Shown: positions 5,276 to 25,628 of the stretch, in pieces
Layout of the letters: each line of letters starts with the position of its first letter
How positions within the stretch are numbered: the stretch's first letter is position 1
Sequence record: PP400780
Direction: 5' to 3' (one strand)
Source of the DNA: Escherichia phage FL18
DNA length: 64,000 bases
Program-made: the position numbers and the translations under genes
Notes under the pieces: model-generated
Seen by the model: only the letters and a program-made list of their open reading frames with translations
Database searches by the model: none
What the model was told of the DNA's origin: nothing

Positions 5276-7245
5276 TGTGAAATAGGCTCCAAATCTATAG
5301 TTAAGTACTGAGGACGTAAGTCATTTTCGAATACGATTAAAGAACCATCCTTTGTAAAAATAATATCATCTGCAGGGTCAGAATAAAGTTCAATTGTTTG
5401 AACTTCAAAACGGTCTGAAGTGAGGTCAATTTTAGCAATGTTCCAATAAATCGAATCGGCAGGATAATTCACTTCACCAATTGAATAGTATTTGTTTCGT
5501 CCGTCAGTAACAGTAAGTTTATTAAAATCATTACCTGTATAAGGTTGTATATTTTCGTTTTCAACAACATCACCGTCCGCAAATGGACCAATAATAACTT
5601 GACCTATACCACGGTCATTACGGTCAGAAGATACTATGCGAACACCGTATTTAATAGTTTCGTTTGCATTTTCTGGATTAGGTCTGTGCGAATCAAACGA
5701 GAATATATTAGATTCCATCGATCTATCTTTAATCTGATTATTGTATTTAATACCGGCCTCAGGCGTTTTATAGAAGTTTTGTACTTCGCGAACCATTTGA
5801 ATAGTAGCTGAAGAACCAATAATAGAAATATCTGCATCATCGACATAAGTTAGCATTTTAGATTTTGCAAACGATGAGTTAAAAATTTCTACATCTTCAA
5901 TATAATAACGGTCAATTTTATTAATAATTTGCCCTTCAAGATATTGTTCTGATTCTTGGAGTTTATTCAACGCGTATGTAACTTTGATATTCATTTTGAT
6001 AAACAAATAATCAGGCGAAATAACAACAGGTGTAATAGTCCCTAAGTTATAATCATTCAAATAGTTTTTGATATCATCGCGTTGGACAGAAGTCAAGTAC
6101 AATCCAGATTTAGGCTTAGCAGCAATATATGCGTACCCTGGTTTAGATGAATCTGTGAATGTTTGAACCGCTTGAATAATAGAACCAAACCGCTCAGAGA
6201 CGAATGTGTCATAGTCGGAAGCGGTTACACAACGTTGTTGAGTTTCGCGTTTAATTGTGCCTAATTCGCGGATACGTTCAATATCTTCAGGGTCACCACC
6301 GCCGTCGGCCCCAACAAAGTCTGGGTTATTGCTAGGGTTCTCGTTAATATCGATTACCGTGATATTAACTAATGTATCAGCATAAGAAAATCCTACAGCA
6401 CCGTTAGCATCTGCGCCATTAGTAGAAATATACTCAATTACGATTTTAGAACCCTGAACAGGTTTAAGGCCACCAATATAGTTAGATGTTAACGCACCTT
6501 CTGATGTGTTAATAGAGATTTCGCCTTCACCAAAATAAAATTCAGTGTTCCCATCAACTGTTTCACGCATATAATAGATTGTTGACGTAGAACCAGCGTG
6601 AACCATCGACTTACGAGTCCAGTTAATCCATTCTGCTCCGTCAACATACAACTTAACCAAATTACGGTCAATATTCTTATCACGAATAATGATAGGTTTT
6701 AATCTATCAAATGTTAATTCAGTGCGAACAATACGTCCTTGAGCTAATCGAAGACGTGGAAAATATTGGTTATTTTTGTCTTTAACTACAATGACATCTT
6801 CAGTAGAAACAAAGTTATACGGGTTAACAGAAGTATCTTTAGCGTATGCTAAGAAACGAGTGCCACGTGGAATGGTGATATAGTTTCTATTTAATGCATC
6901 CGTACATGTGAGCATAATTTCTGTTTGTGCTGCTGATTTAGATGAAGGCAGATATCCGTTATCTTGAGCCGCTTGTACAACAGAACTACGCAAGTTTGCA
7001 GTACGCATAAAACTTTCATACACTGCACTATTACTGAACTGTTGGATGTAAAGAGTGTTATATGCTAAAAGGTCGCACAATACGTTTAAACGCGAACCTT
7101 CAAAATCATAATCAAGAAATTCGTTCTGTCCATTGAGCCATTCAATAATGTTTTGTTTGATTTCGGCAAATGTACCCCCGATAAAAATCTCGGGAATAGC
7201 ATTCGCTGTTCGGGCTAATTGATAATTTACAGGAGTGTTTGCCAT
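5272..7245 (-). CDS. 6: baseplate wedge subunit gp6
   Basis: ORF track gives 676 aa; start moved to internal MANTPVNYQ (about 657 aa; T4 gp6 660 aa). Confidence 0.8.
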   Translation of the reverse strand: MANTPVNYQLARTANAIPEIFIGGTFAEIKQNIIEWLNGQNEFLDYDFEGSRLNVLCDLLAYNTLYIQQFSNSAVYESFMRTANLRSSVVQAAQDNGYLPSSKSAAQTEIMLTCTDALNRNYITIPRGTRFLAYAKDTSVNPYNFVSTEDVIVVKDKNNQYFPRLRLAQGRIVRTELTFDRLKPIIIRDKNIDRNLVKLYVDGAEWINWTRKSMVHAGSTSTIYYMRETVDGNTEFYFGEGEISINTSEGALTSNYIGGLKPVQGSKIVIEYISTNGADANGAVGFSYADTLVNITVIDINENPSNNPDFVGADGGGDPEDIERIRELGTIKRETQQRCVTASDYDTFVSERFGSIIQAVQTFTDSSKPGYAYIAAKPKSGLYLTSVQRDDIKNYLNDYNLGTITPVVISPDYLFIKMNIKVTYALNKLQESEQYLEGQIINKIDRYYIEDVEIFNSSFAKSKMLTYVDDADISIIGSSATIQMVREVQNFYKTPEAGIKYNNQIKDRSMESNIFSFDSHRPNPENANETIKYGVRIVSSDRNDRGIGQVIIGPFADGDVVENENIQPYTGNDFNKLTVTDGRNKYYSIGEVNYPADSIYWNIAKIDLTSDRFEVQTIELYSDPADDIIFTKDGSLIVFENDLRPQYLTIDLEPISQ

Positions 7246-12452: not shown

Positions 12453-13187
12453 ATGGAGCTAATCTTTTTAAGTGGCATCAAACGTAGTGGTAAAGACACT
12501 ACTGCTGATTACATCAATTCAAACTTTAAATCCGTAAAATACCAATTGGCATATCCGATTAAAGACGCTCTAGCAATAGCCTGGGGACGTAAACATGCTG
12601 AAGATCCTGATGTATTCACAGAGTTGAAATACGAATACTTTGAAGGCATTGGATATGACCGTGAAACACCATTAAATCTCAATAAGTTGGATGTTATTGA
12701 ATTATTGGAAGAAGCGCTAATTTATTTACAAAGTCAATATTTACCAATTAATAATGTTAAAGTATTATCATCATTAGAAGGTGGGTATTCATATCTAGAT
12801 ATTAAACCATATGAAGCCCTGCGTGAAGCTATAAATAATATCAACGACACATGGTCAATCCGCCGTCTTATGCAAGCCCTCGGTACGGATGTTGTCGTTA
12901 ATTTATTTGACCGTATGTATTGGGTTAAACTTTTTGCATTAAACTATATGGATTATATTGGAAGTGATTTCGATTACTATGTTGTAACCGATACACGCCA
13001 AGTCCATGAAATGGAAACCGCTAGAGCGATGGGTGCTACAGTTATTCATGTGGTTCGCTCTGGTACGGAATCCACTGATAAACATATTACAGAAGCTGGG
13101 TTGCCTATTGAAGAAGGCGATTTAGTTATTACAAACGACGGCTCTTTAGAAGAGCTTTATTCTAAAATTGAAACAATCTTAAGGTAA
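12453..13187 (+). CDS. 1: deoxynucleoside monophosphate kinase gp1
   Basis: 244 aa; N-terminal P-loop-like LSGIKRSGKDT; synteny. Confidence 0.75.
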   Translation: MELIFLSGIKRSGKDTTADYINSNFKSVKYQLAYPIKDALAIAWGRKHAEDPDVFTELKYEYFEGIGYDRETPLNLNKLDVIELLEEALIYLQSQYLPINNVKVLSSLEGGYSYLDIKPYEALREAINNINDTWSIRRLMQALGTDVVVNLFDRMYWVKLFALNYMDYIGSDFDYYVVTDTRQVHEMETARAMGATVIHVVRSGTESTDKHITEAGLPIEEGDLVITNDGSLEELYSKIETILR

Positions 13188-13191
13188 TAAA

Positions 13192-13877
<686 letters not shown>

Positions 13878-13890
13878 TTTTCACAAAACA

Positions 13891-13925
13891 GTTTACATAA
13901 GGATGATGGTGTGTTACTATCATCC
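13891..13925 (+). promoter_or_regulatory. PeSL: early promoter (GTTTACA ... TACTAT) inside inverted repeat ggatgat/atcatcc
   Basis: seen in sequence; recurring element. Confidence 0.55.
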
Positions 13926-13954
13926 TATCAAATAAACAACCTCAAGGAAATAAA

Positions 13955-14266
13955 ATGAAAACCTATCAAGAATTCATCGCGGAAGCTACTAAAGCAGATA
14001 AAAATTTTGTTATTAACACTAACGGCCCGTTAGATGATGAATACGCTAATGCTATTATTAAGTCAATTTCTAATCAAGGCGTTGAAGTATCAAATTTCGA
14101 ATATAAGAAAAATGATACTTATATGGTAATTAGTATCAAAAAAGGTTCAAAGGCTAAAATTAAATCTGCATTTGGTGTTATGCGAGTCGACCAAATCGAT
14201 AACCACGATTTTTCACAAACAGGGGTTAAACGCCAAAATACCATTTCTTCTAAAGGCATAAAATAA
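13955..14266 (+). CDS. internal protein with capsid targeting sequence (ipI position)
   Basis: N-terminus MKTYQEFIAEA; 103 aa. Confidence 0.65.
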   Translation: MKTYQEFIAEATKADKNFVINTNGPLDDEYANAIIKSISNQGVEVSNFEYKKNDTYMVISIKKGSKAKIKSAFGVMRVDQIDNHDFSQTGVKRQNTISSKGIK

Positions 14267-14300
14267 TTTACAACACGATAGGACTATGTTATAGTAGTCC
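14266..14300 (+). promoter_or_regulatory. PeSL (core ggactatgttatagtagtcc)
   Basis: -35-like ATTTACA plus stem-loop with -10-like TATAGT. Confidence 0.5.
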
Positions 14301-14327
14301 TATCAAAACAACCAAATGGAACCTAAA

Positions 14328-14591
14328 ATGAAAACTTTCAACGAATTCATCTCAGAATCATCTGGTGTGAAAATTAACAAAGCGGTCAATCAGGTTATTG
14401 CTGATATTCTTAATTTGTATAACATTGACTTAACTCCGCATATCACGCTTGGTAACAAACGAAACTTTTTCGTATTTGACACATCCGAACTTGATGAAAA
14501 TCAGTTCAATAATATTCAACGTTTTGCTAATGATAAAGGTCTTCGACACGAGCCTGGTGGCTATAAAAAATACGCAATATATTTGAAATAA
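14328..14591 (+). CDS. internal-protein-like, CTS MKTFNEFISE
   Basis: start taken at second ATG to match CTS; 87 aa. Confidence 0.55.
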   Translation: MKTFNEFISESSGVKINKAVNQVIADILNLYNIDLTPHITLGNKRNFFVFDTSELDENQFNNIQRFANDKGLRHEPGGYKKYAIYLK

Positions 14592-14593
14592 AG

Positions 14594-14630
14594 GTATACA
14601 AGCCTATAGGGATATGTTATAGTAGTCCTA
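14594..14630 (+). promoter_or_regulatory. PeSL variant
   Basis: gtataca ... gggatatgttatagtagtccta. Confidence 0.45.
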
Positions 14631-14660
14631 TCAAAACAAATGAGTAAATGGAGAAATAAA

Positions 14661-14846
14661 ATGAAACGCGCTGAACTGATTCGTAATGTTGCTGTAGTAA
14701 TTGCTTCAATGGCTTTTAGTTTTTCGATGTTTGTAGGATTCATTTGCGGACTACTGACAACAACTGAAAATTCTATCTCATTGGTAGTAGCATTTCTAAT
14801 CGGTTTAATCGCTATCGTTATGGATAAAATTGCAAAAGGCGAGTAA
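14661..14846 (+). CDS. small membrane protein
   Basis: 61 aa, hydrophobic core; SD TGGAG upstream. Confidence 0.45.
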   Translation: MKRAELIRNVAVVIASMAFSFSMFVGFICGLLTTTENSISLVVAFLIGLIAIVMDKIAKGE

Positions 14847-14847
14847 A

Positions 14848-15210
14848 ATGAAATATCACGTATATGCGGATTTTGAAGCAAATCCTTCTAAAGACCCCGA
14901 TTGTCGTTTGATACGCAGACCATTTGATTCAGCAGCTCAAGCCTGGGCCTGGATTAAAACTTGTACTCCTTCTTACACTTTCTTTGAAGTGGTAGACGAT
15001 AACGGTGTTCTGCATCCAGAACCTACAGAAACTATTAATTTCCTTCTGTTTGCTGGTTATGACTGTTATCCTCTTGGTGGTATTGACGACCTTGTTGCTA
15101 CAGGAAAAACTTTTGAAGCTCTTCGCGAAATTTATAAAAACGCGGAAGAAAATTTTGACTGGTATCATATTGTTGATGCTCATACCTTTGAAATGGTGGA
15201 ACATTCATGA
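14848..15210 (+). CDS. hypothetical protein
   Basis: 120 aa ORF, start adjusted to ATG 14848 just after upstream stop. Confidence 0.45.
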   Translation: MKYHVYADFEANPSKDPDCRLIRRPFDSAAQAWAWIKTCTPSYTFFEVVDDNGVLHPEPTETINFLLFAGYDCYPLGGIDDLVATGKTFEALREIYKNAEENFDWYHIVDAHTFEMVEHS

Positions 15211-15491
15211 TTCTTTATGCTAAAGTATCGTCCATTGAGAACGGATATGAAAGCGACCAACGTGCAGCTAAAGCACTAGTTAATGACTACGGTATTCTGA
15301 CTATCTTTGAGGTTGAAAAGGTTTATATCGACCGTTCATCTTCGCAAGTTAAATTACTCTGTGAAGACGATAAATTTAACACAGTTAACTTTGATTTCTT
15401 TATTGAAACAGAAAAAGGCCCTCTTGAATATGACATTTTCAAGAATCCTTTAGGACTTGATTGCATTCAGAACACATACACAATATGGTGA
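15207..15491 (+). CDS. hypothetical protein
   Basis: 94 aa ORF, ATGA overlap with upstream gene. Confidence 0.45.
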   Translation: MILYAKVSSIENGYESDQRAAKALVNDYGILTIFEVEKVYIDRSSSQVKLLCEDDKFNTVNFDFFIETEKGPLEYDIFKNPLGLDCIQNTYTIW

Positions 15492-15522
15492 GAAATCGTT
15501 TTGCCAACTGTTAAAATGATTG

Positions 15523-15550
15523 ATTTGCTTTAAGAATTATGTGTTATTAT
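15523..15550 (+). promoter_or_regulatory. candidate middle promoter (MotA box TGCTTTA + TATTAT) upstream of tRNAs
   Basis: tgcttta at 15526-15532, 12 nt spacer, tattat. Confidence 0.4.
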
Positions 15551-15611
15551 TAATTCATACCCTCTATTACCAAAGGTACTCTAAAGTGCCTTTCATAATA
15601 GAAAGTTATTT

Positions 15612-15685
15612 AGGCCCTGTAGCTCAATGGTTAGCAGCAGTCCCCTCATAAGGGAAAGGTTACCAGTTCGAATCTGGTCTGGGTC
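15612..15685 (+). tRNA. tRNA with anticodon CAT (Ile2/Met-type), no encoded CCA
   Basis: manual cloverleaf: anticodon loop ctCATaa, T-arm accag-ttcgaat-ctggt; acceptor stem has one mismatch and one G-U, D-stem weak. Confidence 0.5.
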
Positions 15686-15691
15686 ATATAT

Positions 15692-15768
15692 TCGAGGCAT
15701 AGCTCAATTGTATAGAGCAACGGATTTCTAATCCGTAGGTTGAAGGTTAGAATCCTTCTGCCTCGACC
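15692..15768 (+). tRNA. tRNA-Arg (anticodon TCT), CCA encoded
   Basis: manual cloverleaf with perfect 7-bp acceptor stem cgaggca/tgcctcg, D gctc/gagc, anticodon loop ttTCTaa, T-arm gaagg-ttagaat-ccttc, CCA. Confidence 0.85.
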
Positions 15769-15769
15769 A

Positions 15770-16084
15770 AATAAGAAGCCGGGTCGCTACCGGTAAGTCG
15801 TCGGACTGATGTTCCCTGAGTAAGGACTGGTCTTAATAAATCTTTACGATTTGTTAATATCCCCTTACATCACAGCAGAAACGGCGCACCGAATTATCGA
15901 TTCGAGGAAATATCTTTGCCGTAAGCCGAGTAGCGTTTTTGACGGAACGTTCGGATATGGTCGAGATATGGCCTTTTAAAAATATTGAGTAGCGTCAACT
16001 GCTTAATAACCGGGTTCGAATCCCGGCGTTTCGTACAAACACTTGCCTTAGCAGGTGGGACCCCGACAAGGTTGCCGCAAGGCT
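15770..16084 (+). ncRNA. possible small stable RNA(s) co-transcribed with tRNAs
   Basis: no ORF; contains T-arm-like ccggg-ttcgaat-cccgg at 16009-16025; ends at intrinsic terminator; T4 is reported to carry small stable RNAs in its tRNA cluster. Confidence 0.3.
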
Positions 16085-16114
16085 TAGCCCCTTCCGAAAG
16101 GTTGGGGCTTTTTT
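16085..16114 (+). terminator. intrinsic terminator (agcccc..ggggct + T7), cassette copy 1
   Basis: hairpin with GAAA loop followed by T-run. Confidence 0.6.
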
Positions 16115-16115
16115 T

Positions 16116-16123
16116 GTATAAAT
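16116..16123 (+). promoter_or_regulatory. late promoter TATAAATA immediately after terminator
   Basis: exact TATAAATA. Confidence 0.45.
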
Positions 16124-16159
16124 ATAGTAAACAATAAACCTACTTTCTAAGGACCATCA

Positions 16160-16786
16160 ATGTATACTTTTAATGAATTTTTAGCCGAAACGGAAGTAAT
16201 CACCGAAGCCGGTGTACGTATGACAAAAGAGAAATGGCAAGCTGCTTACGATGCTATTTCTGGTACAAAAACTAGTACAGAGTTTTTCAAAAACGTTCAA
16301 GCCATGTACGGTATCGACACTTCCAGCCAAAAAGAATATTACAGAGCTTCTAAAGCATTCAAAGATATTGTTAGTGGTGGCGTTTCTGCTAAATCGGGTT
16401 CGCCTAAAGTAAAACCTGCTCCTACCATTTCTAAACCTGCGACCCCTAAAGCAATAGCAAAACCTGAGCCTAAGCCGGAAGTAAAAGCAACTCCTAAAGC
16501 TCCTGCTCTTAAGTTTGATACTTCTAGCCTGGAAAAAAAATATAAACAACTATCTTCGCTTGTTCGTGATATTGAATCCGATACATCTTCACTCGTTCGT
16601 GAATTCAATAGTCTTCGTAATGGCCAACATATCAACAACCTTGATACCCCAGACCTTTATCGTCTTTATTTGACTATCGAAGGTTTGAAGTACACTCAAC
16701 CACTTCACGATGAGATTAAAGAAAAACTTCGTCAGGCAGGTCGTTTGGCTGCTGACGCTGCTCAGTATGCAAAAACTCGTAAGTAA
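16160..16786 (+). CDS. internal-protein-like with CTS-like N-terminus and Pro/Lys-rich repeat region
   Basis: N-terminus MYTFNEFLAE; repeats PKVKPAPTISKPATPKAIAKPEPKPEVKATPKAP; 208 aa. Confidence 0.55.
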   Translation: MYTFNEFLAETEVITEAGVRMTKEKWQAAYDAISGTKTSTEFFKNVQAMYGIDTSSQKEYYRASKAFKDIVSGGVSAKSGSPKVKPAPTISKPATPKAIAKPEPKPEVKATPKAPALKFDTSSLEKKYKQLSSLVRDIESDTSSLVREFNSLRNGQHINNLDTPDLYRLYLTIEGLKYTQPLHDEIKEKLRQAGRLAADAAQYAKTRK

Positions 16787-16791
16787 AGAAT

Positions 16792-16807
16792 GGGGACTTC
16801 GGTCCCC
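16792..16807 (+). terminator. UUCG-tetraloop hairpin after ORF
   Basis: ggggac-ttcg-gtcccc, no T-run. Confidence 0.35.
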
Positions 16808-16838
16808 ATTAGGGGGTCTATAACTTTCTGAAAAAGTT

Positions 16839-16880
16839 GTTTACTTCTTCCCTAGATGTGTTACTATAGACCTATAAAAA
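16839..16880 (+). promoter_or_regulatory. PeSL (GTTTAC ... TGTTACTATAGACC)
   Basis: seen in sequence. Confidence 0.5.
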
Positions 16881-16895
16881 CATGAGGAAAATATT

Positions 16896-17201
16896 ATGAG
16901 TCTTTATACTGAACTGAATAAAAAATCTGAAGAATCTGCTGAAACTATTTTTAAAAACGTGCAAAAGCGTATTTTAGAAAAGATGTATAACGCTGCAGCT
17001 AAAGGTGAAAAATCTTGCCAGTTTCCGATTAGGTGTTCTTCAGATTTATGCGCAAATACTATTGAATGGCTGGAAAGTGAAGGTCTTACGGTAAAGAAAA
17101 ACCCGGCGACTTCTATTGACGGTGAATCATATATTAGTATTTCTTGGGATAAACCACGTATGAATGAAGGATACTACAAGTTGTTAAGTTGGAAAAATTA
17201 A
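16896..17201 (+). CDS. hypothetical protein
   Basis: 101 aa ORF after PeSL with SD GAGGA. Confidence 0.5.
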   Translation: MSLYTELNKKSEESAETIFKNVQKRILEKMYNAAAKGEKSCQFPIRCSSDLCANTIEWLESEGLTVKKNPATSIDGESYISISWDKPRMNEGYYKLLSWKN

Positions 17202-17210
17202 AAATAATGA

Positions 17211-17240
17211 TGTACAAGCACCAAGGATGGTGATACTATA
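17211..17240 (+). promoter_or_regulatory. PeSL-like early promoter (TGTACA ... TACTAT)
   Basis: 17 nt spacing. Confidence 0.4.
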
Positions 17241-17269
17241 GACTTATCAACTACAGAGGAGTAAACAAA

Positions 17270-17434
17270 ATGACTACTTTAATTATTTGGTTCGATGAAA
17301 ATGAAGAAACATACTGTGTGAATATTGGTGAAAGTCCAATGCCTGAATTTGAATCCTCGGATAAAAACTCTGTTGTATCTTGGGCTGAAGGTTATAAAGC
17401 CGCTAAAGGTGACGTTGAAATAATTTACATCTAA
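17270..17434 (+). CDS. small hypothetical protein (54 aa, below ORF-track cutoff)
   Basis: ATG after SD GAGGAG; translated by eye. Confidence 0.35.
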   Translation: MTTLIIWFDENEETYCVNIGESPMPEFESSDKNSVVSWAEGYKAAKGDVEIIYI

Positions 17435-17453
17435 GTACGTTTATGTTATAGTA
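17424..17453 (+). promoter_or_regulatory. PeSL-like early promoter
   Basis: atttaca ... tatgttatagta. Confidence 0.4.
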
Positions 17454-17481
17454 ATCACATCAAATCAAGAGGAGAAACAAA

Positions 17482-17709
17482 ATGGCTACAGTTAGTATTG
17501 ATGTCGTTGATTATGAATACACTGAAGAAGTTATTCGCAACCGTCACCCTGAAGTTCGTATCGATTCAGTCCAAGATTCCAAGTTTTGGACAACTGAGCT
17601 TAATCTGAGCGGTCCTTATGAAGCTGTTAAGAAGTTCATGGTTGAAGAATACTGCGAAGGCATGCACCCCGAAGACACCAAGTTTTATGTCAATTTGATT
17701 AAAAAATAA
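17482..17709 (+). CDS. hypothetical protein
   Basis: 75 aa ORF, SD AGAGGAG. Confidence 0.5.
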   Translation: MATVSIDVVDYEYTEEVIRNRHPEVRIDSVQDSKFWTTELNLSGPYEAVKKFMVEEYCEGMHPEDTKFYVNLIKK

Positions 17710-17779
17710 TTTACAAACTCTTGAGAGCAGAGTATAATGCTCTCGTTGGATAATAAACCACCAATTGAAAGGTAATAAT

Positions 17780-18373
17780 ATGAACACACTGAAGAAACTT
17801 GTTGAATTCATCCGCACTAAACTGGGTACTGCTATGGCTAAAAATCTGACTGTCGAAGAACAGTATAACGCAGCTGCAGATAAGTTGATCACCCAAATCA
17901 AAGAACTAAAAACGGCTTCTGTTAAATCTATTAATGAAGAAAAACGTATTCGCGAACTTGTTAATGAAAAGAACAAGCAAGCCGCTTCTAAGGAACGTGA
18001 AATTCGTAAGCTCCTGGCTGAAGGACAAGATGTTACTATGCATGCTAAGCTTGGTCTTCTGTATCGTCGAACCGCCGAACAACTTAATACAAAAGCTGAC
18101 GGGTATGCCGCTATGCGAATTGAAATTGCTCGTAAGGTGGTTGAACTTGATGATGCTCGTCAGAATCTGGCAATCAAACTCGAATACATTCGTGAAACTC
18201 GAGCAGCCAATGCCCTTGGTATCTCTACGGCCGATGATGTAATTGAAATCGCTGCACTGACTAAGGTTGATATCGAAGACACTCTGACTCGTGTTGAAAC
18301 GTTCAATGGCACTCCAGCTGGTGTTGAAACCACTTCTGCTGATGTACAAGAATATATTAACTCTTTGAAATAA
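17780..18373 (+). CDS. hypothetical coiled-coil protein
   Basis: 197 aa from ATG 17780; charged/helical composition. Confidence 0.5.
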
Positions 18374-18382
18374 AATAATACG

Positions 18383-18405
18383 GAGGACTCCGGTCCTCCT
18401 TTTGG
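18383..18405 (+). terminator. intrinsic terminator (ggaggac-tccg-gtcctcc + TTTT)
   Basis: seen in sequence. Confidence 0.55.
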
Positions 18406-18422
18406 ATAATAAAGGAGTTAAC

Positions 18423-19025
18423 ATGCGAAACCAAAATAATGATATTGACTCAATGTTCGAAGAGTTCCGAGATAAGGTAAATCCACCTACGTCTTTAGTT
18501 GATTCATTACGATATGTTGCAACTGGACGTAAATGGTACTGGTCGTCTTCTTATGAGACCACCGAGAAAACGGCTAGCCATAGCAGAAAATCTTTATTAG
18601 CCCCAGGTATTATGATTCATGATATCGGAGCTATTGCTAAACTAGTTGCAGACCATGATATTAGATTCACTGATTTCGTTGCTACTACATGGTCTGTTTG
18701 TTGTTTAAACACCGAATTGGAATATATCAGTGAACGTTCAGATGATTACATAGGCTTTAGAGACAAGCTTTTAAGGTCTAACATGTTTTATATTGATACA
18801 GAAGTTCTAGTCAATAATAAAAAATACTACTTCACTTTAATCGTCGATTCTGAAACTATGTATGAAGGCAAGCCTTTGCTTAAGAGAGTTGATGCTTTAA
18901 GTGCTATTGATGCGCTTTATGAAACTATGGTTGTTAGTCCTAATTTCACTAACAATTTAATCCTTGAGCAATTTATTATGGAATGTAGAGAATATGTCAA
19001 AGCCAACCCTGTACATGCCAATTAA
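18423..19025 (+). CDS. hypothetical protein (C-terminus contains FIMECR)
   Basis: 200 aa from ATG 18423 after AAAGGAG. Confidence 0.5.
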   Translation: MRNQNNDIDSMFEEFRDKVNPPTSLVDSLRYVATGRKWYWSSSYETTEKTASHSRKSLLAPGIMIHDIGAIAKLVADHDIRFTDFVATTWSVCCLNTELEYISERSDDYIGFRDKLLRSNMFYIDTEVLVNNKKYYFTLIVDSETMYEGKPLLKRVDALSAIDALYETMVVSPNFTNNLILEQFIMECREYVKANPVHAN

Positions 19026-19389
19026 GCCCTGGGCATACGAATACAAACGTAAATTAATCCCAAATGAAGTACTATTTGGCCCTATTTTAGCTTTAGCATT
19101 TTTAATCTTTATGATTATAGGAGCCGTTTTAGATTCTAGTGAAGTTATATCTTCTGATGCGGTGTTTTTACTTATTATACCTGGGTCGTTTATTGTGCCA
19201 TTTTTATTAATGCCTATTAACTGGGTGGGATATTGGTATCAAGGCCGTCATCACAGAGCTCGAGTTCGTGAGTGGAAAGTTCAGTGCGCAAAAGCCCAAG
19301 CTCAGTATGATGAAGCTGTTAAAAAGTATGAATATGAAGAAGCTATGGAATTCGTTAAGGAAATAAGATGCAAAAGCCTCAACTCTTAA
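19015..19389 (+). CDS. membrane protein
   Basis: hydrophobic segments; start uncertain (18994 or 19015). Confidence 0.4.
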   Translation: MPIKPWAYEYKRKLIPNEVLFGPILALAFLIFMIIGAVLDSSEVISSDAVFLLIIPGSFIVPFLLMPINWVGYWYQGRHHRARVREWKVQCAKAQAQYDEAVKKYEYEEAMEFVKEIRCKSLNS

Positions 19390-19727
19390 CCATATGGCCT
19401 TCTCTTGGTGAGAACATTCTAATTTTTATTATGAGTATTGGCATGGGATTTGCCTTTGGATTAGTTGGATTTCTTATTGACGGCGTTGTGTTAGGATTTA
19501 TAGGGAACACTGGTGGATTCACAGACCAATGGCAGGACTTACGGTATACCAAAGCCTTTGCATCCATCGCATCATTTTGTACTGTAGTCTATTTTTACTA
19601 CGATTTTATAAACCATAACAAGAAAAATAAAAAGGTTTACGCTTCTCAAATGATTAGTTATAATGAACTCCTAGCTAGACGTGAAAATGAAACAATCGAA
19701 AACTTTATTAAGGAATGTAGAAAATGA
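19368..19727 (+). CDS. membrane protein ending NFIKECRK
   Basis: 119 aa; SD AAGGA 7 nt upstream. Confidence 0.5.
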   Translation: MQKPQLLTIWPSLGENILIFIMSIGMGFAFGLVGFLIDGVVLGFIGNTGGFTDQWQDLRYTKAFASIASFCTVVYFYYDFINHNKKNKKVYASQMISYNELLARRENETIENFIKECRK

Positions 19728-20029
19728 GTAAGATTATTGAAATTAAAGTACCAGAGTTTAATGATGCCAAATCCGCTTCAGATGCAATTTATAAACTTCT
19801 GAATCAAGCTGAACGTATCGAAGAAGAAGCAACAAAGATCGCAGACCAATATGCCGTATCATTTTCTGTAGGTGATTATGGTAGCGGTCGTACTTATTAT
19901 CCTAAGGGTGAAATCGTATCCCAGTGGATGAAAAATGAAATTGAAAATAACGGTGGCTATGTTAAGCGTGAAGGTAATGGTTACGTTATTACTGAAGGTG
20001 CTTGGGTTTCGTCTTCTGCGTTGTGCTAA
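19724..20029 (+). CDS. small protein, WVSSSxxC-terminus family member 1
   Basis: 101 aa; ends GAWVSSSALC. Confidence 0.5.
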   Translation: MSKIIEIKVPEFNDAKSASDAIYKLLNQAERIEEEATKIADQYAVSFSVGDYGSGRTYYPKGEIVSQWMKNEIENNGGYVKREGNGYVITEGAWVSSSALC

Positions 20030-20038
20030 GGAATCATT

Positions 20039-20311
20039 ATGTCTAAAGAACAAACCGAACTGGCTGAAGCTGTAGCAAAAATCTATGCAGCTATTGAGGC
20101 TGCCAAAGAAATTGCTGATAAACAAAACACAACATTCGATTTGTACCCAGCTTATGGTATGGGTGGAACCTATCATTCACCAGGACATCTTAAAGCCGAT
20201 CTTGAACGTTGTACAAAAAACGGCTATGCTGAATGGGCTGACGTTTACCAATACGACTACAACCTGAGCCTCGAAACTGGTGGTTGGGTCGCATCTTCTC
20301 ACACTTGCTAA
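20039..20311 (+). CDS. small protein, WVSSSxxC-terminus family member 2
   Basis: 90 aa; ends GGWVASSHTC. Confidence 0.5.
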   Translation: MSKEQTELAEAVAKIYAAIEAAKEIADKQNTTFDLYPAYGMGGTYHSPGHLKADLERCTKNGYAEWADVYQYDYNLSLETGGWVASSHTC

Positions 20312-20320
20312 GGAAACAAT

Positions 20321-20518
20321 ATGTCTCGTGAATTAGATTGTGCTGTACGTACGGCAGTAGCTGCCCTGGAAAACCTGTTCCAAATTGCAACAGAAGAACG
20401 CGAAGAAGTTACATTATGGATTGAAGATAACGCAGGTCTGAATCTCCAGAACGCAATCTCATTATCAAATAATAGTATTACTGTTCAAGGCTGGGTATCA
20501 TCTAGTTATTCTTGCTAA
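20321..20518 (+). CDS. small protein, WVSSSxxC-terminus family member 3
   Basis: 65 aa; ends QGWVSSSYSC. Confidence 0.5.
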   Translation: MSRELDCAVRTAVAALENLFQIATEEREEVTLWIEDNAGLNLQNAISLSNNSITVQGWVSSSYSC

Positions 20519-20522
20519 AACA

Positions 20523-20560
20523 GTTTACAACAAGATAGGGCTATGTTATAGTAGTCCTAT
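20523..20560 (+). promoter_or_regulatory. PeSL
   Basis: GTTTACA + stem-loop tagggctatgttatagtagtcctat. Confidence 0.55.
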
Positions 20561-20580
20561 CAAATTAAATGGAGTCCACA

Positions 20581-20820
20581 ATGATTTATTACGAAAGTAT
20601 TGGAACCAAAGTGGTTGCTAAAACCATTACTCGTGAAAAGTTTGCAAAGATATTTGATATGCGTTATAAAAAATCTGAACACAAAGGCATCCGATTCGAA
20701 GATGCGCACTGTACAATTTGCCCTTATAATGAAGACATAAACGGTACAATCGTTCCATTGGTAGAAGCTTCACATGATGACCTTTGGGATGAATATAATA
20801 TCGCATGTCGTGAAATTTAA
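20581..20820 (+). CDS. hypothetical protein
   Basis: 79 aa from ATG 20581 after TGGAG. Confidence 0.45.
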   Translation: MIYYESIGTKVVAKTITREKFAKIFDMRYKKSEHKGIRFEDAHCTICPYNEDINGTIVPLVEASHDDLWDEYNIACREI

Positions 20821-20848
20821 GTTAATGAATTAATCCGAGGAAAATATT

Positions 20849-21805
20849 ATGATGTTAGTTATTGGTTCTCGTGCACTTCACTATCACGGTCTTATTGATT
20901 CTAGCGCTATCAAAAATAGTGATTGGGACTTTATTGCGGACCAAGGTTCTTGGAATGCATTCAAAAATCAAATGATGGGTGTATATGTCCACCAAGATAA
21001 CCATGATGTCCAAGTTTTCAAATGCTTCCATAATGGACGCGAAACTCATTTTGAAGCATATATTGTTCCGGCAATCACTAATGTCCGTGAATTAGTCGGT
21101 GAACTCACTCCTGAAGATTTCACGTCTTCTTATGACCTTTTAAAATACGCCAAGAAAAATTTGACTAAAGACCGTTTGAACGGGTTTTACTGGGCAACTC
21201 CTGAGATATGTCTTGCAATTAAGATGTCTCATCGTTTCAAGAAAAATAATCCATTCTTTTTAAAGACTATGAACCATATTCAGTATCTTCGTGGTAAAGG
21301 TGTTACACTGAACGATGAACTTACTGAAATTATGCTGAAACGCCAGAAAGAAACCTTGAACTATGCTCACCCGGTTCTTGACACTTCTAAAAGTGCGTTC
21401 TTTAAAGATGACATCTATACATATGACCATGATACTATTCATGAAGCCATTGCACTAACAGACCGTCCAGCGTATACATTTTATATGAAAGACGGTTCTG
21501 AAGTCATGACCTCACGAGAGAAGTTCGAATCGTTACCAGAAATGGTCAAATTGGCCGGTGTATATGAAGAATCATGTGTACTAGCATTAGAACGTTCTCA
21601 GATTCCTAATGACTTTAAAATTAACCCTGAAGCCAGTTTCATGATGGCATTGGAAAAGGTCTGTACAAGCATCACCTCCGGTTGGTTCCGTGAATACGCC
21701 TGGGAAAGCTACAGCAAAGTAGTAAGTATGTACCAAAGTTTAGGACATGACGATTACGTCAAACGTTTCAAACAAAATTTCCATATGGTAAAACCTTTCA
21801 AATAA
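20849..21805 (+). CDS. hypothetical protein (318 aa)
   Basis: long ORF with SD GAGGA; no motif recognised. Confidence 0.5.
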   Translation: MMLVIGSRALHYHGLIDSSAIKNSDWDFIADQGSWNAFKNQMMGVYVHQDNHDVQVFKCFHNGRETHFEAYIVPAITNVRELVGELTPEDFTSSYDLLKYAKKNLTKDRLNGFYWATPEICLAIKMSHRFKKNNPFFLKTMNHIQYLRGKGVTLNDELTEIMLKRQKETLNYAHPVLDTSKSAFFKDDIYTYDHDTIHEAIALTDRPAYTFYMKDGSEVMTSREKFESLPEMVKLAGVYEESCVLALERSQIPNDFKINPEASFMMALEKVCTSITSGWFREYAWESYSKVVSMYQSLGHDDYVKRFKQNFHMVKPFK

Positions 21806-21817
21806 TTTCGCAAAACT

Positions 21818-21854
21818 GTTTACACAATTATAGGACTATGTTATAGTAGTCCTA
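21818..21854 (+). promoter_or_regulatory. PeSL
   Basis: GTTTACA + taggactatgttatagtagtccta. Confidence 0.55.
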
Positions 21855-21875
21855 TTAAAACATGAGGAGAATATT

Positions 21876-22181
21876 ATGAAATTAGGCGAAACCAATCGAA
21901 TCGGTCTTTTTACAATATTTGCATCACCTTTTTACGTAGCTCTTTCTGTTGCAGTATTACAAAAGGCTTACAGTATGGATGGTGTTCCTGGTTTTGTATT
22001 CTTATCACCGTTTTTATTATTCGTCGGAGCTTTGTTATTATATGCCACGACTAGTTTCGACCATAACGTCTGGGTTAATTATAAATGTAAATTGTCTGAA
22101 GAAGAACACGCAGAAGCTCGTAAAAAAGCTATTGAATCTACCAATCTAGAAAATTTCATTAAAGAATGCCGAGGAAAATAA
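21876..22181 (+). CDS. membrane protein ending NFIKECRGK
   Basis: 101 aa, two hydrophobic helices. Confidence 0.5.
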   Translation: MKLGETNRIGLFTIFASPFYVALSVAVLQKAYSMDGVPGFVFLSPFLLFVGALLLYATTSFDHNVWVNYKCKLSEEEHAEARKKAIESTNLENFIKECRGK

Positions 22182-22182
22182 T

Positions 22183-22869
22183 ATGAATAGTTCTAAAGTG
22201 TTTAATAGTCAAGCTCGTGCAGTAGGTGGTTTTGCTCATGCGATTAAAAACGACCAGATTAAAAACGAGCCTATGTTCTTTAACTGCGATTTGAATTTTG
22301 CTTTTGATAATGGCGGTCCAATTACTCGTAGCTTTATCCAAAATCTCCCTGACGATTGGAAAGACTCGGATGTAGTATTTGATTCACGAGTCCACATGCT
22401 GATGCCTGGTTGGTACCCTGCTATCCCAGGTTATCACCATGACGATGTACCACGCCCGGATATTCCGGTTGGTCAACACTTTATTACTGCAGGACAACCT
22501 GACTATGACAATCCTCGCTATTTGTCTGAACATATTCTTGGTCTTGTTAACGCTGATGTGTGTCCTACTCATTTTGCAACAGGAACTGCAGAGTTCAGTC
22601 AGATTCCTGATGGTGAACTTATCTATCGCCAGTGGCACAAAGAAGTCCTCGAAAAAATCGAAAAAGGCGAACTAGAGAAATGGGAAGCTCCAGATCGTAC
22701 TCTTCTTCAGTTTGATTGGCAAACATGGCACACTGGTTCTCGTGCAATTAGTAACGGATGGCGTTGGTTCGGGCGTGTATCTCGTAATACAGACCGAGTT
22801 AAAAAGATTACCAATGAAATTCGTGTCAATGCCCAAGTTTATCTGGAATTCCCTATGGAAGGCTGGTAA
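22183..22869 (+). CDS. hypothetical protein (228 aa)
   Basis: ORF with SD; no motif recognised. Confidence 0.5.
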   Translation: MNSSKVFNSQARAVGGFAHAIKNDQIKNEPMFFNCDLNFAFDNGGPITRSFIQNLPDDWKDSDVVFDSRVHMLMPGWYPAIPGYHHDDVPRPDIPVGQHFITAGQPDYDNPRYLSEHILGLVNADVCPTHFATGTAEFSQIPDGELIYRQWHKEVLEKIEKGELEKWEAPDRTLLQFDWQTWHTGSRAISNGWRWFGRVSRNTDRVKKITNEIRVNAQVYLEFPMEGW

Positions 22870-23348
22870 TGATTAACAATAATATAGACGATGGCAACGA
22901 AGGTATTTCGTATTATTCAGTAGATTGGACAGGATGTCCATCCTACTTAGTGAAACATATTTGCCAAGAATTTAAAATCAACCAGCCAGCAGGTATTATC
23001 GTGAACAGATACATTAATGGATATCAACCTATGGATGAAGTAATACGAACAACTCAAGCTGAGCTTGAAAAGTTTTTCAATAAGTGCCAATGGATAACAG
23101 GATGGATTATATTTGTACCGTCAGTGTGGTTTTTTAGTACTAAAGTAAGTGCCTTTGCTATACTAGATATTATCGCTATCTTATTAGCATCTACTATCGT
23201 AAGTATAATTGGCGGTATAATTGGTGGAGGTACTGTAGGCATCATTATTAATCTTGTTAAAAGTAGTTTACAAGAACGTAAAGACAAGATAAAGGCCAAG
23301 AATAATGAAGTTGAACGTTTTATTACCGAATGCAGGAATTTGAGATGA
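22869..23348 (+). CDS. membrane protein ending RFITECRNLR
   Basis: 159 aa; Gly-rich TM segment IIGGIIGGGTVGIII. Confidence 0.5.
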   Translation: MINNNIDDGNEGISYYSVDWTGCPSYLVKHICQEFKINQPAGIIVNRYINGYQPMDEVIRTTQAELEKFFNKCQWITGWIIFVPSVWFFSTKVSAFAILDIIAILLASTIVSIIGGIIGGGTVGIIINLVKSSLQERKDKIKAKNNEVERFITECRNLR

Positions 23349-23581
23349 GTATAGCAATTTACATTAAATCAGAATCATGTGATAGTTATCTGTACACATA
23401 CGATAAAGATGTGTCAGAAGAAAAAATCAAAGACGATCTTAATATGGACCTTGATATGTTCTGTCCTATTGCAGATTACAAACTTGCGGTCTCTAATAGT
23501 GAAAGTCCATCTAAAGAAACGCGCATTGAAGAATTTATATCTGAACTAATGGCCAAATCATGGGACCGAGATGATGAGTAA
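23345..23581 (+). CDS. hypothetical protein
   Basis: 78 aa from ATG 23345. Confidence 0.4.
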   Translation: MSIAIYIKSESCDSYLYTYDKDVSEEKIKDDLNMDLDMFCPIADYKLAVSNSESPSKETRIEEFISELMAKSWDRDDE

Positions 23582-24029
23582 GAAAAATAAAGTGAAAGAA
23601 CTATCAGCCGGTATTATTTTCCTTACCGAAGATAAAGAATTATTCATGGGGCGTGTAACTGGTTCTCGTCATAAAGGTGCATTAGCTCATCGGTGGGATA
23701 TTCCTAAAGGCCGTGTCGAACCTGGCGAATCTCCTATTGAAGCCGCTATTCGTGAATGCGAAGAAGAAACTGGGTTTACACAATATGACCCTGCCTTCCT
23801 GAAAGACCTAGGTGAACATCATTACTCAGACAATAAGAATATTCATCTGTTCCTATATACCATCCCTGTAGAGCACGAGCAATTCAGAAACAGTGTTTGT
23901 AATTCATATCATACATTCCCAGACGGACGACAGATTCCTGAATTTGATGCATTCGCTTTAATTAAACCTTCTCAATGGGAATATGTAATGGGCAAATCAT
24001 TATATAAGGTGCTCACTACACTCCTATAA
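23571..24029 (+). CDS. nudE: Nudix hydrolase
   Basis: Nudix box GRVEPGESPIEAAIRECEEETGF; 152 aa; adjacent to lysozyme gene as in T4. Confidence 0.75.
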   Translation: MMSKKNKVKELSAGIIFLTEDKELFMGRVTGSRHKGALAHRWDIPKGRVEPGESPIEAAIRECEEETGFTQYDPAFLKDLGEHHYSDNKNIHLFLYTIPVEHEQFRNSVCNSYHTFPDGRQIPEFDAFALIKPSQWEYVMGKSLYKVLTTLL

Positions 24030-24063
24030 GTAATAAATACCTCCTATAAACGTGGGAGGTATT

Positions 24064-24552
24064 ATGAATATATTTGAAATGCTTCGTAATGACGAAGGTC
24101 TTAGACTGACTTTATACAAAGACACTGAAGGCTTTTGGACGATTGGCATAGGCCATTTGGTAACAAAGAACCCGTCTTTAGCCATAGCTAAAGCTGAACT
24201 TGACAGAATTATCGGACGTAAATGCAACGGTACAATTACCCTTGATGAGGCTGAAAAGCTATTTAATGAAGACGTTGATAAAGCCGTTCGCGGAATCTTG
24301 GGTAATGCTAAACTTAAACCGGTATATGATTCTTTAGATGCGGTTCGTCGATGTGCATTGGTCAATATGGTCTTCCAAATGGGTGTAGCAGGCGTCGCCG
24401 GTTTTACTAATTCTCTTCGTATGCTTCAACAGAAACGTTGGGACGAAGCGGCAGTAAATCTAGCCCAATCTAAATGGTATCGTCAGACACCTAATCGCGC
24501 GAAACGCGTAATCTCAACATTTAAAACAGGAACTTGGAAAGCGTATATATGA
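24064..24552 (+). CDS. e: endolysin (T4 lysozyme family)
   Basis: [15 protein letters not shown]...TIGIGHL...; length about 162 aa. Confidence 0.9.
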
Positions 24553-24830
24553 AAACATACAATGAATTTTTATCAGAATCTATTCTTAACGAAGCTACTG
24601 ACACATTTGCAACTAAGCTAGGTGCAGCTTTGGTTGAAGCCGAAAGTCTATTAGCACGTATTTCTGAACTTGCTAGTAAGATAGATACTCGCAAATTTGA
24701 ACGTACCAGCGATATCGCTAAGCTTGAAGCCTTGTTACGTATGTGCGATAAACCGGAAGAAATCGCTAAGAACGGCTCGCTGATGAAACAACGTCTTGAA
24801 AAATATATTTCAGGCGCTTCAGAAAAATAG
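24549..24830 (+). CDS. internal-protein-like, [13 protein letters not shown]
   Basis: ATGA overlap with e; 93 aa. Confidence 0.6.
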
Positions 24831-24832
24831 TT

Positions 24833-24884
24833 GTTTACTTCCTCCAAGGGTTTTGATACTATACATTCATCAACTACTTGGAGG
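24833..24884 (+). promoter_or_regulatory. PeSL (inverted repeat cctccaag/cttggagg around GATACTATA)
   Basis: seen in sequence. Confidence 0.5.
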
Positions 24885-24889
24885 AAATT

Positions 24890-24993
24890 ATGACCCGTCC
24901 GAAGCGTCCATTGCGATAAATCAAGCACGCTTAGATGAAAAAATTGCTCAACGTCCGACTTGGTACAAATACTTTGGTAAATCAATTTACTAA
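24890..24993 (+). pseudogene. denV: denV (endonuclease V) remnant: start codon plus frameshifted C-terminal about 31 codons
   Basis: ATG ACC CGT (MTR) then out-of-frame ...[30 protein letters not shown], matching recalled T4 EndoV C-terminus; about 100 internal codons absent. Confidence 0.6.
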
Positions 24994-24999
24994 GGAAAA

Positions 25000-25260
25000 A
25001 TGAAAATGTATCAAGAATTTATCGTTGAAGCAGATGCCAAAGGTCCTAAATTTAAAGTTAAAGCTTTCATTGGTGATGCGGAAGACTTTGGCTCATTAAA
25101 ACGTAATGGGTATTCTTTCTTAGGTGGCAATGGTAAAGAAATCAACACCTATGCAAAACGTAGTGAAATTGCTTATGTTGTAGCAAGTCCTAAAGTAGAT
25201 GTTGACGATATTGGATACGATTTTAACAACTTCGGAATTATTTCTGGCGGTAAAGCTTAA
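25000..25260 (+). CDS. internal-protein-like, CTS MKMYQEFIVE
   Basis: 86 aa. Confidence 0.55.
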   Translation: MKMYQEFIVEADAKGPKFKVKAFIGDAEDFGSLKRNGYSFLGGNGKEINTYAKRSEIAYVVASPKVDVDDIGYDFNNFGIISGGKA

Positions 25261-25263
25261 ATT

Positions 25264-25295
25264 GTTTACGCTTAAGTATTAATATGGTATATAAT
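25264..25295 (+). promoter_or_regulatory. early-type promoter (GTTTAC ... TATAAT)
   Basis: spacing about 20 nt, weaker match. Confidence 0.3.
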
Positions 25296-25325
25296 TACTC
25301 TATCAAAACAAACAAGGAAACAAAA

Positions 25326-25628
25326 ATGAAAACATATCAAGAATTTATTACTGAAGCGCGAGTGAGTGCAGGTAAATTAGAAGCCGCTATAAATAAAAAG
25401 GCCCATTCATTTCATGATTTGTCCGATAAAGACCGTAAGAAACTTGTAAGCCTTTATATTGACAAAGAGCGTATTCTCGCTCTTCCTGGCGCTAATGAAG
25501 GTAAACAGGCCAAGCCTTTGAATGCTGTCGAAAAGAAAATTGATAACTTTGCTTCTAAATTCGGTATGTCTATGGATGACCTTCAGCAAGCGGCTATCGA
25601 AGCAGCTAAAGTAATTAAAGGTAAATAA
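25326..25628 (+). CDS. internal-protein-like, CTS MKTYQEFITE
   Basis: 100 aa; SD AAGGA. Confidence 0.6.
   Translation: MKTYQEFITEARVSAGKLEAAINKKAHSFHDLSDKDRKKLVSLYIDKERILALPGANEGKQAKPLNAVEKKIDNFASKFGMSMDDLQQAAIEAAKVIKGK

Follow-up and report, generated by a model that had tools for sequence, protein, structure and literature searches.

How many of its own proteins does a T4-like phage carry in its head for delivery with the DNA, and where in the genome are they encoded? This question is raised by a 64,000-nucleotide stretch of Escherichia phage FL18 (sequence record PP400780; hereafter the window), in which six genes between positions 13,955 and 25,628, here called A to F, open with variants of the same ten residues. 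These residues resemble the capsid targeting sequence (CTS) of the internal proteins (IPs) of phage T4. A sequence-only reading of this DNA had described the six as an expanded and shuffled arsenal of injected proteins, plausibly anti-defence factors, each behind its own PeSL promoter. The analysis presented here indicates that all six genes quite likely encode T4-type internal proteins. It further suggests, with a more guarded degree of confidence, that gene C and its relatives, the phrog_2280 family, mark a third locus of capsid-targeted proteins in T-even phages.

The evidence starts with the CTS itself. All six open reading frames (ORFs) are present at the starts given by the sequence-only reading (Table 1) and match M-[KY]-[TM]-[YF]-[QN]-E-F-[IL]-x-E at the N-terminus. 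When the whole window was scanned in six frames, this strict motif, a looser form (M..[YFW].[ED]F[ILVM].E) and a seven-residue core each matched six times, always on the + strand and always at the start of one of these ORFs, and no further CTS motif was found; 200 shuffles give expectations of 0, 0.005 and 0.015 matches per window, respectively. The CTS is conserved as protein, not as DNA. Specifically, the 30 nucleotides that encode it have a mean pairwise identity of 0.73 among the six genes, and positions 4 (Phe or Tyr, four codons), 7 (Phe), 8 (Ile or Leu, three codons) and 10 (Glu) are fixed, whereas positions 2, 3, 5 and 9 vary.

These fixed positions are the ones that have been mapped as functional in the CTS of T4 IPIII, where amber-suppressor mutagenesis showed that residues 4 and 7 control head targeting and residues 8 and 10 proteolytic processing (PMC9026906), and the correspondence thereby provides motif support for head targeting. 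All six genes encode the aromatic residue at position 4, the Phe at 7, the Ile or Leu at 8 and the Glu at 10 that characterize the IPIII tag, and this ten-residue tag alone loads GFP, beta-galactosidase or a nuclease into T4 heads (PMC9026906). Residues 8-10 conform to the (L/I)xE consensus of the prohead protease gp21 in six of six, and C and D have second sites (ITE at residues 14-16 and LNE at 13-15, respectively). A ribosome-binding site of the AAGGA/GGAA type lies 5-10 nt upstream of every gene except D.

Beyond the tag, five of the six genes have matches in PHROG (E = 1e-21 to 1e-55) to families catalogued there as internal head or virion proteins, and the labels of their relatives (Ip7, Ip9, 'putative internal head protein', ipII) agree with the internal-protein identity proposed earlier. 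Gene A matches phrog_2667 (E = 7e-39) and is annotated in the related phage mogra as 'internal head protein 7', B matches phrog_7673 (E = 5e-49; 'Ip9 putative internal head protein' in mogra), and E matches phrog_35655 (3e-26) as well as phrog_2667 (7e-21), with the label 'internal head protein' in phage LF82-1 and 'hypothetical' in mogra. Gene F is 94% identical to T4 IPII (phrog_7857, E = 5e-55) and its relatives are labelled 'ipII'. The match of D to phrog_3499 falls within the range of A, B and F (7e-39 to 5e-55). At the sensitivity of the comparisons made, the mature parts are indeed unrelated to each other, as had been claimed: no significant pairwise BLAST match was found among the six, and hhalign gives a probability of 0.5% for the A family against E.

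Several other kinships were considered and rejected. Paralogy of A and E, suggested by their shared phrog_2667 match, fails on the hhalign value for the mature parts, and a 12-residue KGxKxKxK motif is all that the two have in common. Gene B was compared with the neighbouring gp57B on account of a shared 'TPHITL'. The B segment 'DLTPHITLG' (14397-14423) resembles the 2H-phosphoesterase motif 'DYTPHITLS' of gp57B (13743-13769) with E = 0.005 in a single comparison; descent of B from gp57B was rejected because the match spans only nine residues, and the likeness is probably due to chance. Bas37_0260, a CTS protein of Tequatrovirus Bas37, was rejected as a homologue of A or B, the likeness being confined to the tag. 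Pfam gave nothing above threshold for the six proteins, PDB sequence searches with A, C and F gave nothing at E < 0.8, PADLOC gave nothing meaningful, and a literature search for 'Ip7/Ip9' returned unrelated papers only.

The position of the genes can be read from synteny with T4. Across 11.8 kb, the region shares 96-97% identity with E. coli phages of the genus Mosigvirus (among them vB_Eco_F27, mogra, JS09 and the LF82 series), and by its sequence the window is that of a T4-like Mosigvirus of the JS09/JS98 group. Its gene order is that of T4 read counter-clockwise: 1, 57A, 57B, the ipI locus, the trna.x ORFs, the tRNAs, an rnaC-like terminator, e.8 to nudE, e, the ipIII/ipII locus and denV. 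A and B occupy locus 1, the ipI locus between 57B and the tRNAs, and D, E and F occupy locus 2, which extends from e to denV and lies between e and the vs genes. Gene C lies outside both hypervariable IP loci, between the tRNA/rnaC terminator and the e.8-like genes, where T4 has a 284-nt non-coding gap.

Is this arsenal shuffled, and is it expanded? The description as a shuffled set is supported. The Ip7 family of gene A is found in locus 2 of the Dhakavirus UP19 (hhalign 99.3%), and gene D is 48% identical to bas37_0261, which is located in locus 1 of Bas37. The description as expanded holds relative to T4, which has three CTS genes over the same interval, but not relative to other relatives, with seven in mogra, six in LF82-1, five in UP19 and six in Clarke_MM3; PG7 has three and CHI14 two. 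As such, six CTS genes are normal for a Mosigvirus. The seven of mogra include IpIII, which the window does not encode. More generally, CTS genes are polymorphic in presence and absence both within and between genera. Mogra (4168-4632 and 13694-14272) has IpIII plus a 154-aa allele that replaces C at its site, and Bas37 (6029-7191) has two tandem CTS genes at the site of C, neither ipII nor ipIII, and a D-family gene labelled 'ipI'.

The element that departs from the published picture is gene C, the only one of the six outside the annotated IP families; it matches only phrog_2280. C-type homologues were found by tblastn in 143 phage records and form 18 clusters in a large protein database. Two other phrog_2280 subtypes, those of mogra and Bas37, account for 512 and 165 records, respectively, and most of the Tequatrovirus matches are among these; the three record sets overlap, since some phages, such as Bas37 and ime09, carry two subtypes, and correspond to roughly 500-800 T-even phage records overall. 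In every phrog_2280 record listed, the product is named 'hypothetical protein'. Homologues of C with identities as low as about 30%, compared in Dhakavirus, Winklervirus, Kanagawavirus, Karamvirus and a Klebsiella phage, retain the CTS (for example MLNFNEFLLE), and in most of them a further [LIVM]xE site closely precedes a conserved AG(E/V)RMTK block. An exhaustive profile search of 1.84 billion representatives returned only 13 clusters, all of them T-even-like, all tagged and with at least three unrelated C-terminal domains. Across the three subtypes and these 13 representative clusters, the CTS is the most conserved feature.

The site is conserved together with the tag. In mogra it holds a different CTS gene, the 154-aa allele (MKSYAEFLTE...), and in Bas37 it holds bas37_0244 and bas37_0243; all three belong to phrog_2280 (1e-53, 7e-59 and 5e-52, respectively) and each lies behind a late-promoter-like box. 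By hhalign alone, C and mogra_134 are only weakly related (25.9% probability), and their shared family is given by the phrog_2280 matches (8e-58 and 1e-53). Upstream of C, the late-promoter box TATAAATA, one of only seven on the + strand of the window, lies 43 nt before the ATG, which is preceded by an AAGGA ribosome-binding site; C is thus predicted to have a late promoter of the gp55/gp33 type. In all family loci examined, a (T/G/C/A)ATAAATA box lies 35-45 nt upstream of the gene, past the terminator, and the order of terminator, box and CTS gene is kept in LF82-1, UP19, CHI14, Kosakonia 305, PG7, KaAlpha, Clarke_MM3, Entb_45, mogra and Bas37.

Virion data exist for one member of the family. 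Gp140 of Yersinia phage fD1 (MKSYTQFLNEAVLNE...), which belongs to phrog_2280, was flagged as particle-associated by LC-MS/MS (liquid chromatography-tandem mass spectrometry) of purified virions, as was the IPI-like Gp146 of the same phage; the flag is a yes/no call per protein. Cleavage of Gp140 after Glu10 would yield the peptide AVLNEASSTEIQAVAK, and cleavage after Glu15 would yield ASSTEIQAVAK. No other virion proteome that includes a member of phrog_2280 turned up in the literature search.

Taken together, these data argue with moderate confidence for a third locus of capsid-targeted proteins in T-even phages, just downstream of the tRNA/rnaC terminator, whose products would be late-transcribed, modular, head-packaged and injected effectors or DNA-associated proteins. 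Packaging of C appears fairly probable. We infer that C is also packaged and injected; it might serve as an effector whose C-terminal domain is exchangeable or as an internal protein associated with the DNA. Under this reading, the family, carried by several hundred sequenced Tevenvirinae, would have been missed because it is absent from T4. A third CTS locus, if true, contradicts the published confinement of IP genes to two loci.

The predicted structure of C gives a picture of its build. An AlphaFold2 model (pLDDT 71.5) comprises a helical N-domain (residues 23-72), a disordered linker rich in Pro, Ala and Lys (74-113) and a helical C-domain (122-206), and in a Foldseek search of the PDB this model matched nothing but generic helical hairpins (WXG100-like), all with E > 1. 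The idea that C is a diverged IpIII was rejected, as there is no similarity beyond the tag. Just upstream of the gene, after tRNA-Arg (15693-15769), the segment at about 15780-16112 can be aligned to T4 rnaC (species 1 RNA), namely to its 3' part and its terminator; the segment matches no Rfam family at the gathering score, and the short ORFs at 15851-16137 are probably spurious.

Table 1 Coordinates of the CTS genes and associated elements in the window
Feature	Position	Strand	CTS	Description
Gene A	13955-14266	+	MKTYQEFIAE	103 aa, Ip7 family; mature part 93 aa, pI 9.5; just after 57B
Gene B	14328-14591	+	MKTFNEFISE	87 aa, Ip9 family; mature part 77 aa, pI 9.0
Gene C	16160-16786	+	MYTFNEFLAE	208 aa, phrog_2280 'unknown function', E = 8e-58; mature part pI 9.6, 22 kDa
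Gene D	24549-24830	+	variant	93 aa, phrog_3499; mature part pI 6.3; relatives' label 'putative internal head protein'
Gene E	25000-25260	+	MKMYQEFIVE	86 aa; mature part pI 8.2; no promoter of its own
Gene F	25326-25628	+	MKTYQEFITE	100 aa, ipII orthologue; mature part pI 9.7
A cassette	13892-13926	+		TTTACA-N17-TACTAT (13892-13920), overlapping 12-bp hairpin 13900-13926; -15.4 kcal/mol
B cassette	14267-14303	+		TTTACA-N17-TATAGT (14267-14295), hairpin 14278-14303; -16.6 kcal/mol
rnaC-like terminator and predicted late promoter	16086-16124	+		intrinsic terminator hairpin 16086-16109 with T-tract, homologous to the end of T4 rnaC; TATAAATA 16117-16124
denV remnant region	24834-24993	+		promoter 24834-24862, hairpin arms CCTCCAAG/CTTGGAGG 24841-24884, start codon 24890, ~100-nt 3' remnant
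F promoter	25264-25295	+		GTTTACG, then TGGTATATAAT extended -10; weak AT-rich stem, -5.3 kcal/mol

How are the genes expressed? The claim that each sits behind its own PeSL promoter stands for A and B and, weakly, for F, but not for C with its predicted late promoter, nor for D and E. A and B have promoters that fit the early consensus TTTACW-N17-TAYWAT (PMC4122927), each with a hairpin, and the layout upstream of A matches the region upstream of T4 ipI. In the F promoter, the spacing from GTTTACG to TATAAT is off-consensus, and the region aligns with that upstream of T4 ipII. After the hairpin, A and B share a 'CTATCAAAA' leader, which is also shared with F and the T4 ip genes, and the regions upstream of T4 ipI, ipII and ipIII have the same design of early promoter and hairpin, with no late-promoter box within 130 nt upstream of any of the three. 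In FL18, a late-promoter box TATAAATA lies at 12830-12837 inside gene 1, upstream of 57A; by reading through from this box, polymerase could transcribe 57A, 57B, A and B late.

The cassette itself is widespread. Near-identical copies of about 40 bp (TTTACA...ATAGGACTATGTTATAGTAGTCCTATCAAA) lie at 14267-14303, 20524-20560 and 21819-21855, the latter two ahead of the non-IP ORFs 20569 and 21876, and the cassettes of the non-IP ORFs 17780, 20569, 21876 and 36169 are as strong as those of the IP genes (strong cassettes also at 13892, 17710 and 36114). Copies precede unrelated ORFs and three of the six CTS genes are without one; the cassette serves shuffling and regulation in general and is no hallmark of IP genes.

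D and E are arranged differently. The ATG of D overlaps the stop codon of the lysozyme gene e (ATGA, 24549-24552), leaving neither intergenic space nor a promoter of its own, and D is, as this overlap indicates, translationally coupled to e; the same overlap of a CTS gene with the end of e occurs in mogra, LF82-1, UP19 and PG7. E starts 6 nt past a remnant of denV, whose promoter is now the nearest one upstream of E. Intact DenV (endonuclease V) has 138 aa in mogra and LF82-1, and alignment with these two phages shows that FL18 has lost about 310 bp from within denV (24862-24993), with AATTATG(A/T)C microhomologies flanking the deletion. The promoter, the hairpin and the ATG are retained, the frame reads MTRPKRPLR* and an out-of-frame 3' remnant follows. 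Because the deletion breaks the denV frame, FL18 is probably without this pyrimidine-dimer glycosylase. A 65-aa ORF at 24796-24993 is not a gene.

What might these proteins do? The data favour a model in which the CTS would bind each protein to the scaffolding core during prohead assembly and gp21 would then cut after Glu10. A second cut is probable in C (after Glu16) and in D (after Glu15), comparable to the 19-residue propeptide of T4 IPI, which ends in ITE. The mature, mostly basic proteins would remain with the packaged DNA and be ejected along with it into the next host; because they would enter together with the DNA, they would act before any phage gene expression. In T4, IPII is present at about 360 copies per head (PMC9026906). 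According to Arbiol et al. 2010, IP variants number more than 30, IPs are injected to serve in defence or adaptation, and the IP genes lie in two hypervariable loci.

Recent work on T4 and Bas37 bears directly on the proposed function. T4 Ip1, Ip2 and Ip3 each inhibit a distinct GmrSD type IV restriction enzyme without cross-protection, Ip2 inhibiting the GmrSD of ECOR21, and all proteins of 'the two Ip loci' have been proposed to target variants of the same system (Silas et al. 2025, PMC12373910). Bas37_0260, encoded at the ipI locus, inhibits McrBC (HIDEN-SEQ preprint, bioRxiv 10.1101/2025.11.20.689424). The suggestion that the FL18 proteins are anti-defence effectors is thereby supported for F, given its 94% identity to the GmrSD inhibitor IPII, but finds no such footing in A to E, which have no homology to Ip1-like proteins, IpIII or Bas37_0260 beyond the tag. 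As an orthologue of T4 Ip2, F most likely inhibits a type IV restriction enzyme of the GmrSD/BrxU type. A, B, D and E most likely inhibit other type IV or modification-dependent nucleases, an expectation that comes from their class and not from their sequences. Mosigvirus DNA is reported to contain arabinosyl-hydroxymethylcytosine (arabinosyl-hmC), as the DNA of FL18 probably does, so the nucleases that matter for these phages may not be the same as those attacking glucosyl-hmC DNA.

Could the shared N-terminus have an origin other than head targeting? It might be mainly a by-product of recombination, with promoter, leader and first codons forming a swap patch and some carriers, such as C and E, not being directed to the head. 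This would fit the promoter, hairpin and 'CTATCAAAA' leader that A, B and F share mutually and with the T4 ip genes, the shifting of IP families between loci, and the proposal that these elements are recombination sites (Arbiol 2010). Yet the cassette also precedes ORFs without a CTS (20569 and 21876), which argues that the CTS is not simply part of it, and C, D and E carry the CTS without the cassette. Nucleotide identity of the CTS is 0.67-0.73, with the functional residues kept via different codons, the tag persists in the C family even where overall identity falls to about 30%, and fD1 Gp140 was found in virions; an origin of this kind is thus very improbable. For C alone, chance or convergence has to be weighed as well, in which case it would stay in the cytoplasm as an ordinary late protein and not be packaged. 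Its records speak of a 'hypothetical protein' and its PHROG of 'unknown function', residue 2 is Tyr or Leu instead of the Lys of the classical tag, and the gene is found in neither of the two loci to which all IP genes are said to belong (Arbiol 2010). Against such a coincidence stand the expectation of 0.005 per window even for the loose motif, the conservation of the motif above all other features in three subtypes and 13 clusters, the second [LIV]xE site in most members, which recalls the 19-residue propeptide of T4 IPI, and the detection of fD1 Gp140 in virions, and it is hardly credible that the motif arose in this way.

A more serious alternative accepts head targeting of all six and the role proposed for the other five, and takes the C family for head-assembly or DNA-condensing components, like T4 IPIII or a histone-like protein, that are not anti-defence factors. 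C has a late promoter of its own like structural genes, its syntenic position is fixed across genera, it is basic (pI 9.6) and near IPIII in size (22 kDa when mature), its 40-residue Pro/Ala/Lys-rich disordered linker recalls histone-H1-like DNA-binding tails, and T4 IPIII mutants assemble heads more slowly (PMC9026906). However, T4 itself does without the family, which T4-type head assembly therefore does not require, the family is polymorphic within a single genus (C type versus mogra_134 type), and its C-terminal domain has been swapped among at least three unrelated types, a pattern typical of arms-race effectors. T4 Ip3 itself, formerly thought structural, is a GmrSD inhibitor, and C has no similarity to IpIII. 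A purely structural role is thus unlikely, although by no means negligible.

The reading of all six genes as T4-type internal proteins has to bear several points that weigh against it. Processing, packaging and targets of the FL18 proteins are inferred, and gp21 is located outside the window, although the core genome of T4-like phages includes it (PMC9026906). The only promoters of A, B and F are of the early type, despite the late timing of prohead assembly, which is likewise true of T4 ipI, ipII and ipIII, and the mature part of D is not basic (pI 6.3). The targets of A to E are guesses, because these proteins show no likeness to Ip1, Ip3 or Bas37_0260 beyond the tag, and C has no fold or domain match that points to a function in Pfam, PDB, Foldseek or PADLOC. 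The fD1 virion preparations, furthermore, also held 113-137 phage proteins and 672 host proteins, which makes the particle-associated flag weak evidence.

Comparison with known systems places the six genes closest to the T4 IPs. They share a CTS with the same critical residues, the 57B-tRNA and e-denV loci, an early promoter with a hairpin upstream of A, B and F, and small, mostly basic and mutually unrelated mature proteins. In contrast to T4, FL18 has Ip7, Ip9, D and E instead of ipI and ipIII, D appears coupled to the lysozyme gene, and C is larger and modular and lies at a third site behind a late rather than an early promoter. Bas37_0260 (phage KarlGJung) is likewise a small CTS-tagged protein of locus 1, with demonstrated inhibition of type IV restriction, and supports the general model for uncharacterised IPs; it belongs to another PHROG, phrog_8111, and resembles the six FL18 proteins only in the tag.

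A, B and, in weak form, F share with the PeSL and PeSL-like cassettes of T4-type phages (Arbiol et al. 2010; Comeau et al. 2014) a promoter of the TTTACW-N17-TAYWAT type with an overlapping stem-loop. The near-identical FL18 copies, dispersed through the hyperplastic region ahead of unrelated small ORFs, fit shuffling elements, although in FL18 the cassette is found at only three of the six CTS genes and also ahead of non-IP ORFs. Functionally, the Dar proteins of phage P1 and the ejection proteins of the phiKZ/SPN3US type offer a parallel, being head-packaged and co-injected, in some cases processed by a prohead protease and in some cases anti-restriction. Their sequences are unrelated and their packaging signals are different, and the Dar proteins are large and interdependent, whereas the T-even IPs are small and independent, with a transferable ten-residue tag.

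Two further observations concern the genes between C and e. Four predicted small membrane proteins (18964-19389, 19368-19727, 21876-22181 and 22869-23348) share a C-terminal motif (...ENFIKECR(K/GK), ...ERFITECRNLR, ...EFVKEIRCK), which points to paralogues whose cytoplasmic tail is conserved. Three tandem small ORFs (19724-20029, 20039-20311 and 20321-20518) end in G(A)WV(S/A)SS..C (WVSSSALC, WVASSHTC and WVSSSYSC) and look like a tandemly duplicated family; mogra puts the first two in one pVOG.

What do these findings add to our understanding of T-even phages? For A, B, D, E and F the answer is nothing new, as these are catalogued IPs in two known loci. The anti-defence reading of such proteins, which reportedly goes back to Repoila, has served as the working model in the literature since 1994, with experimental confirmation for T4 Ip1-3 in 2025. 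The new element is modest and lies in an unannotated CTS family, phrog_2280, at a third and, by its promoter, late-transcribed site outside the IP loci of the literature. If its members are indeed injected, screens of therapeutic T-even phages for anti-restriction and anti-defence factors overlook a candidate class. The modular build of the family, with a constant N-domain and a variable C-domain, would furthermore suit it as a scaffold for the delivery of cargo via the phage head.

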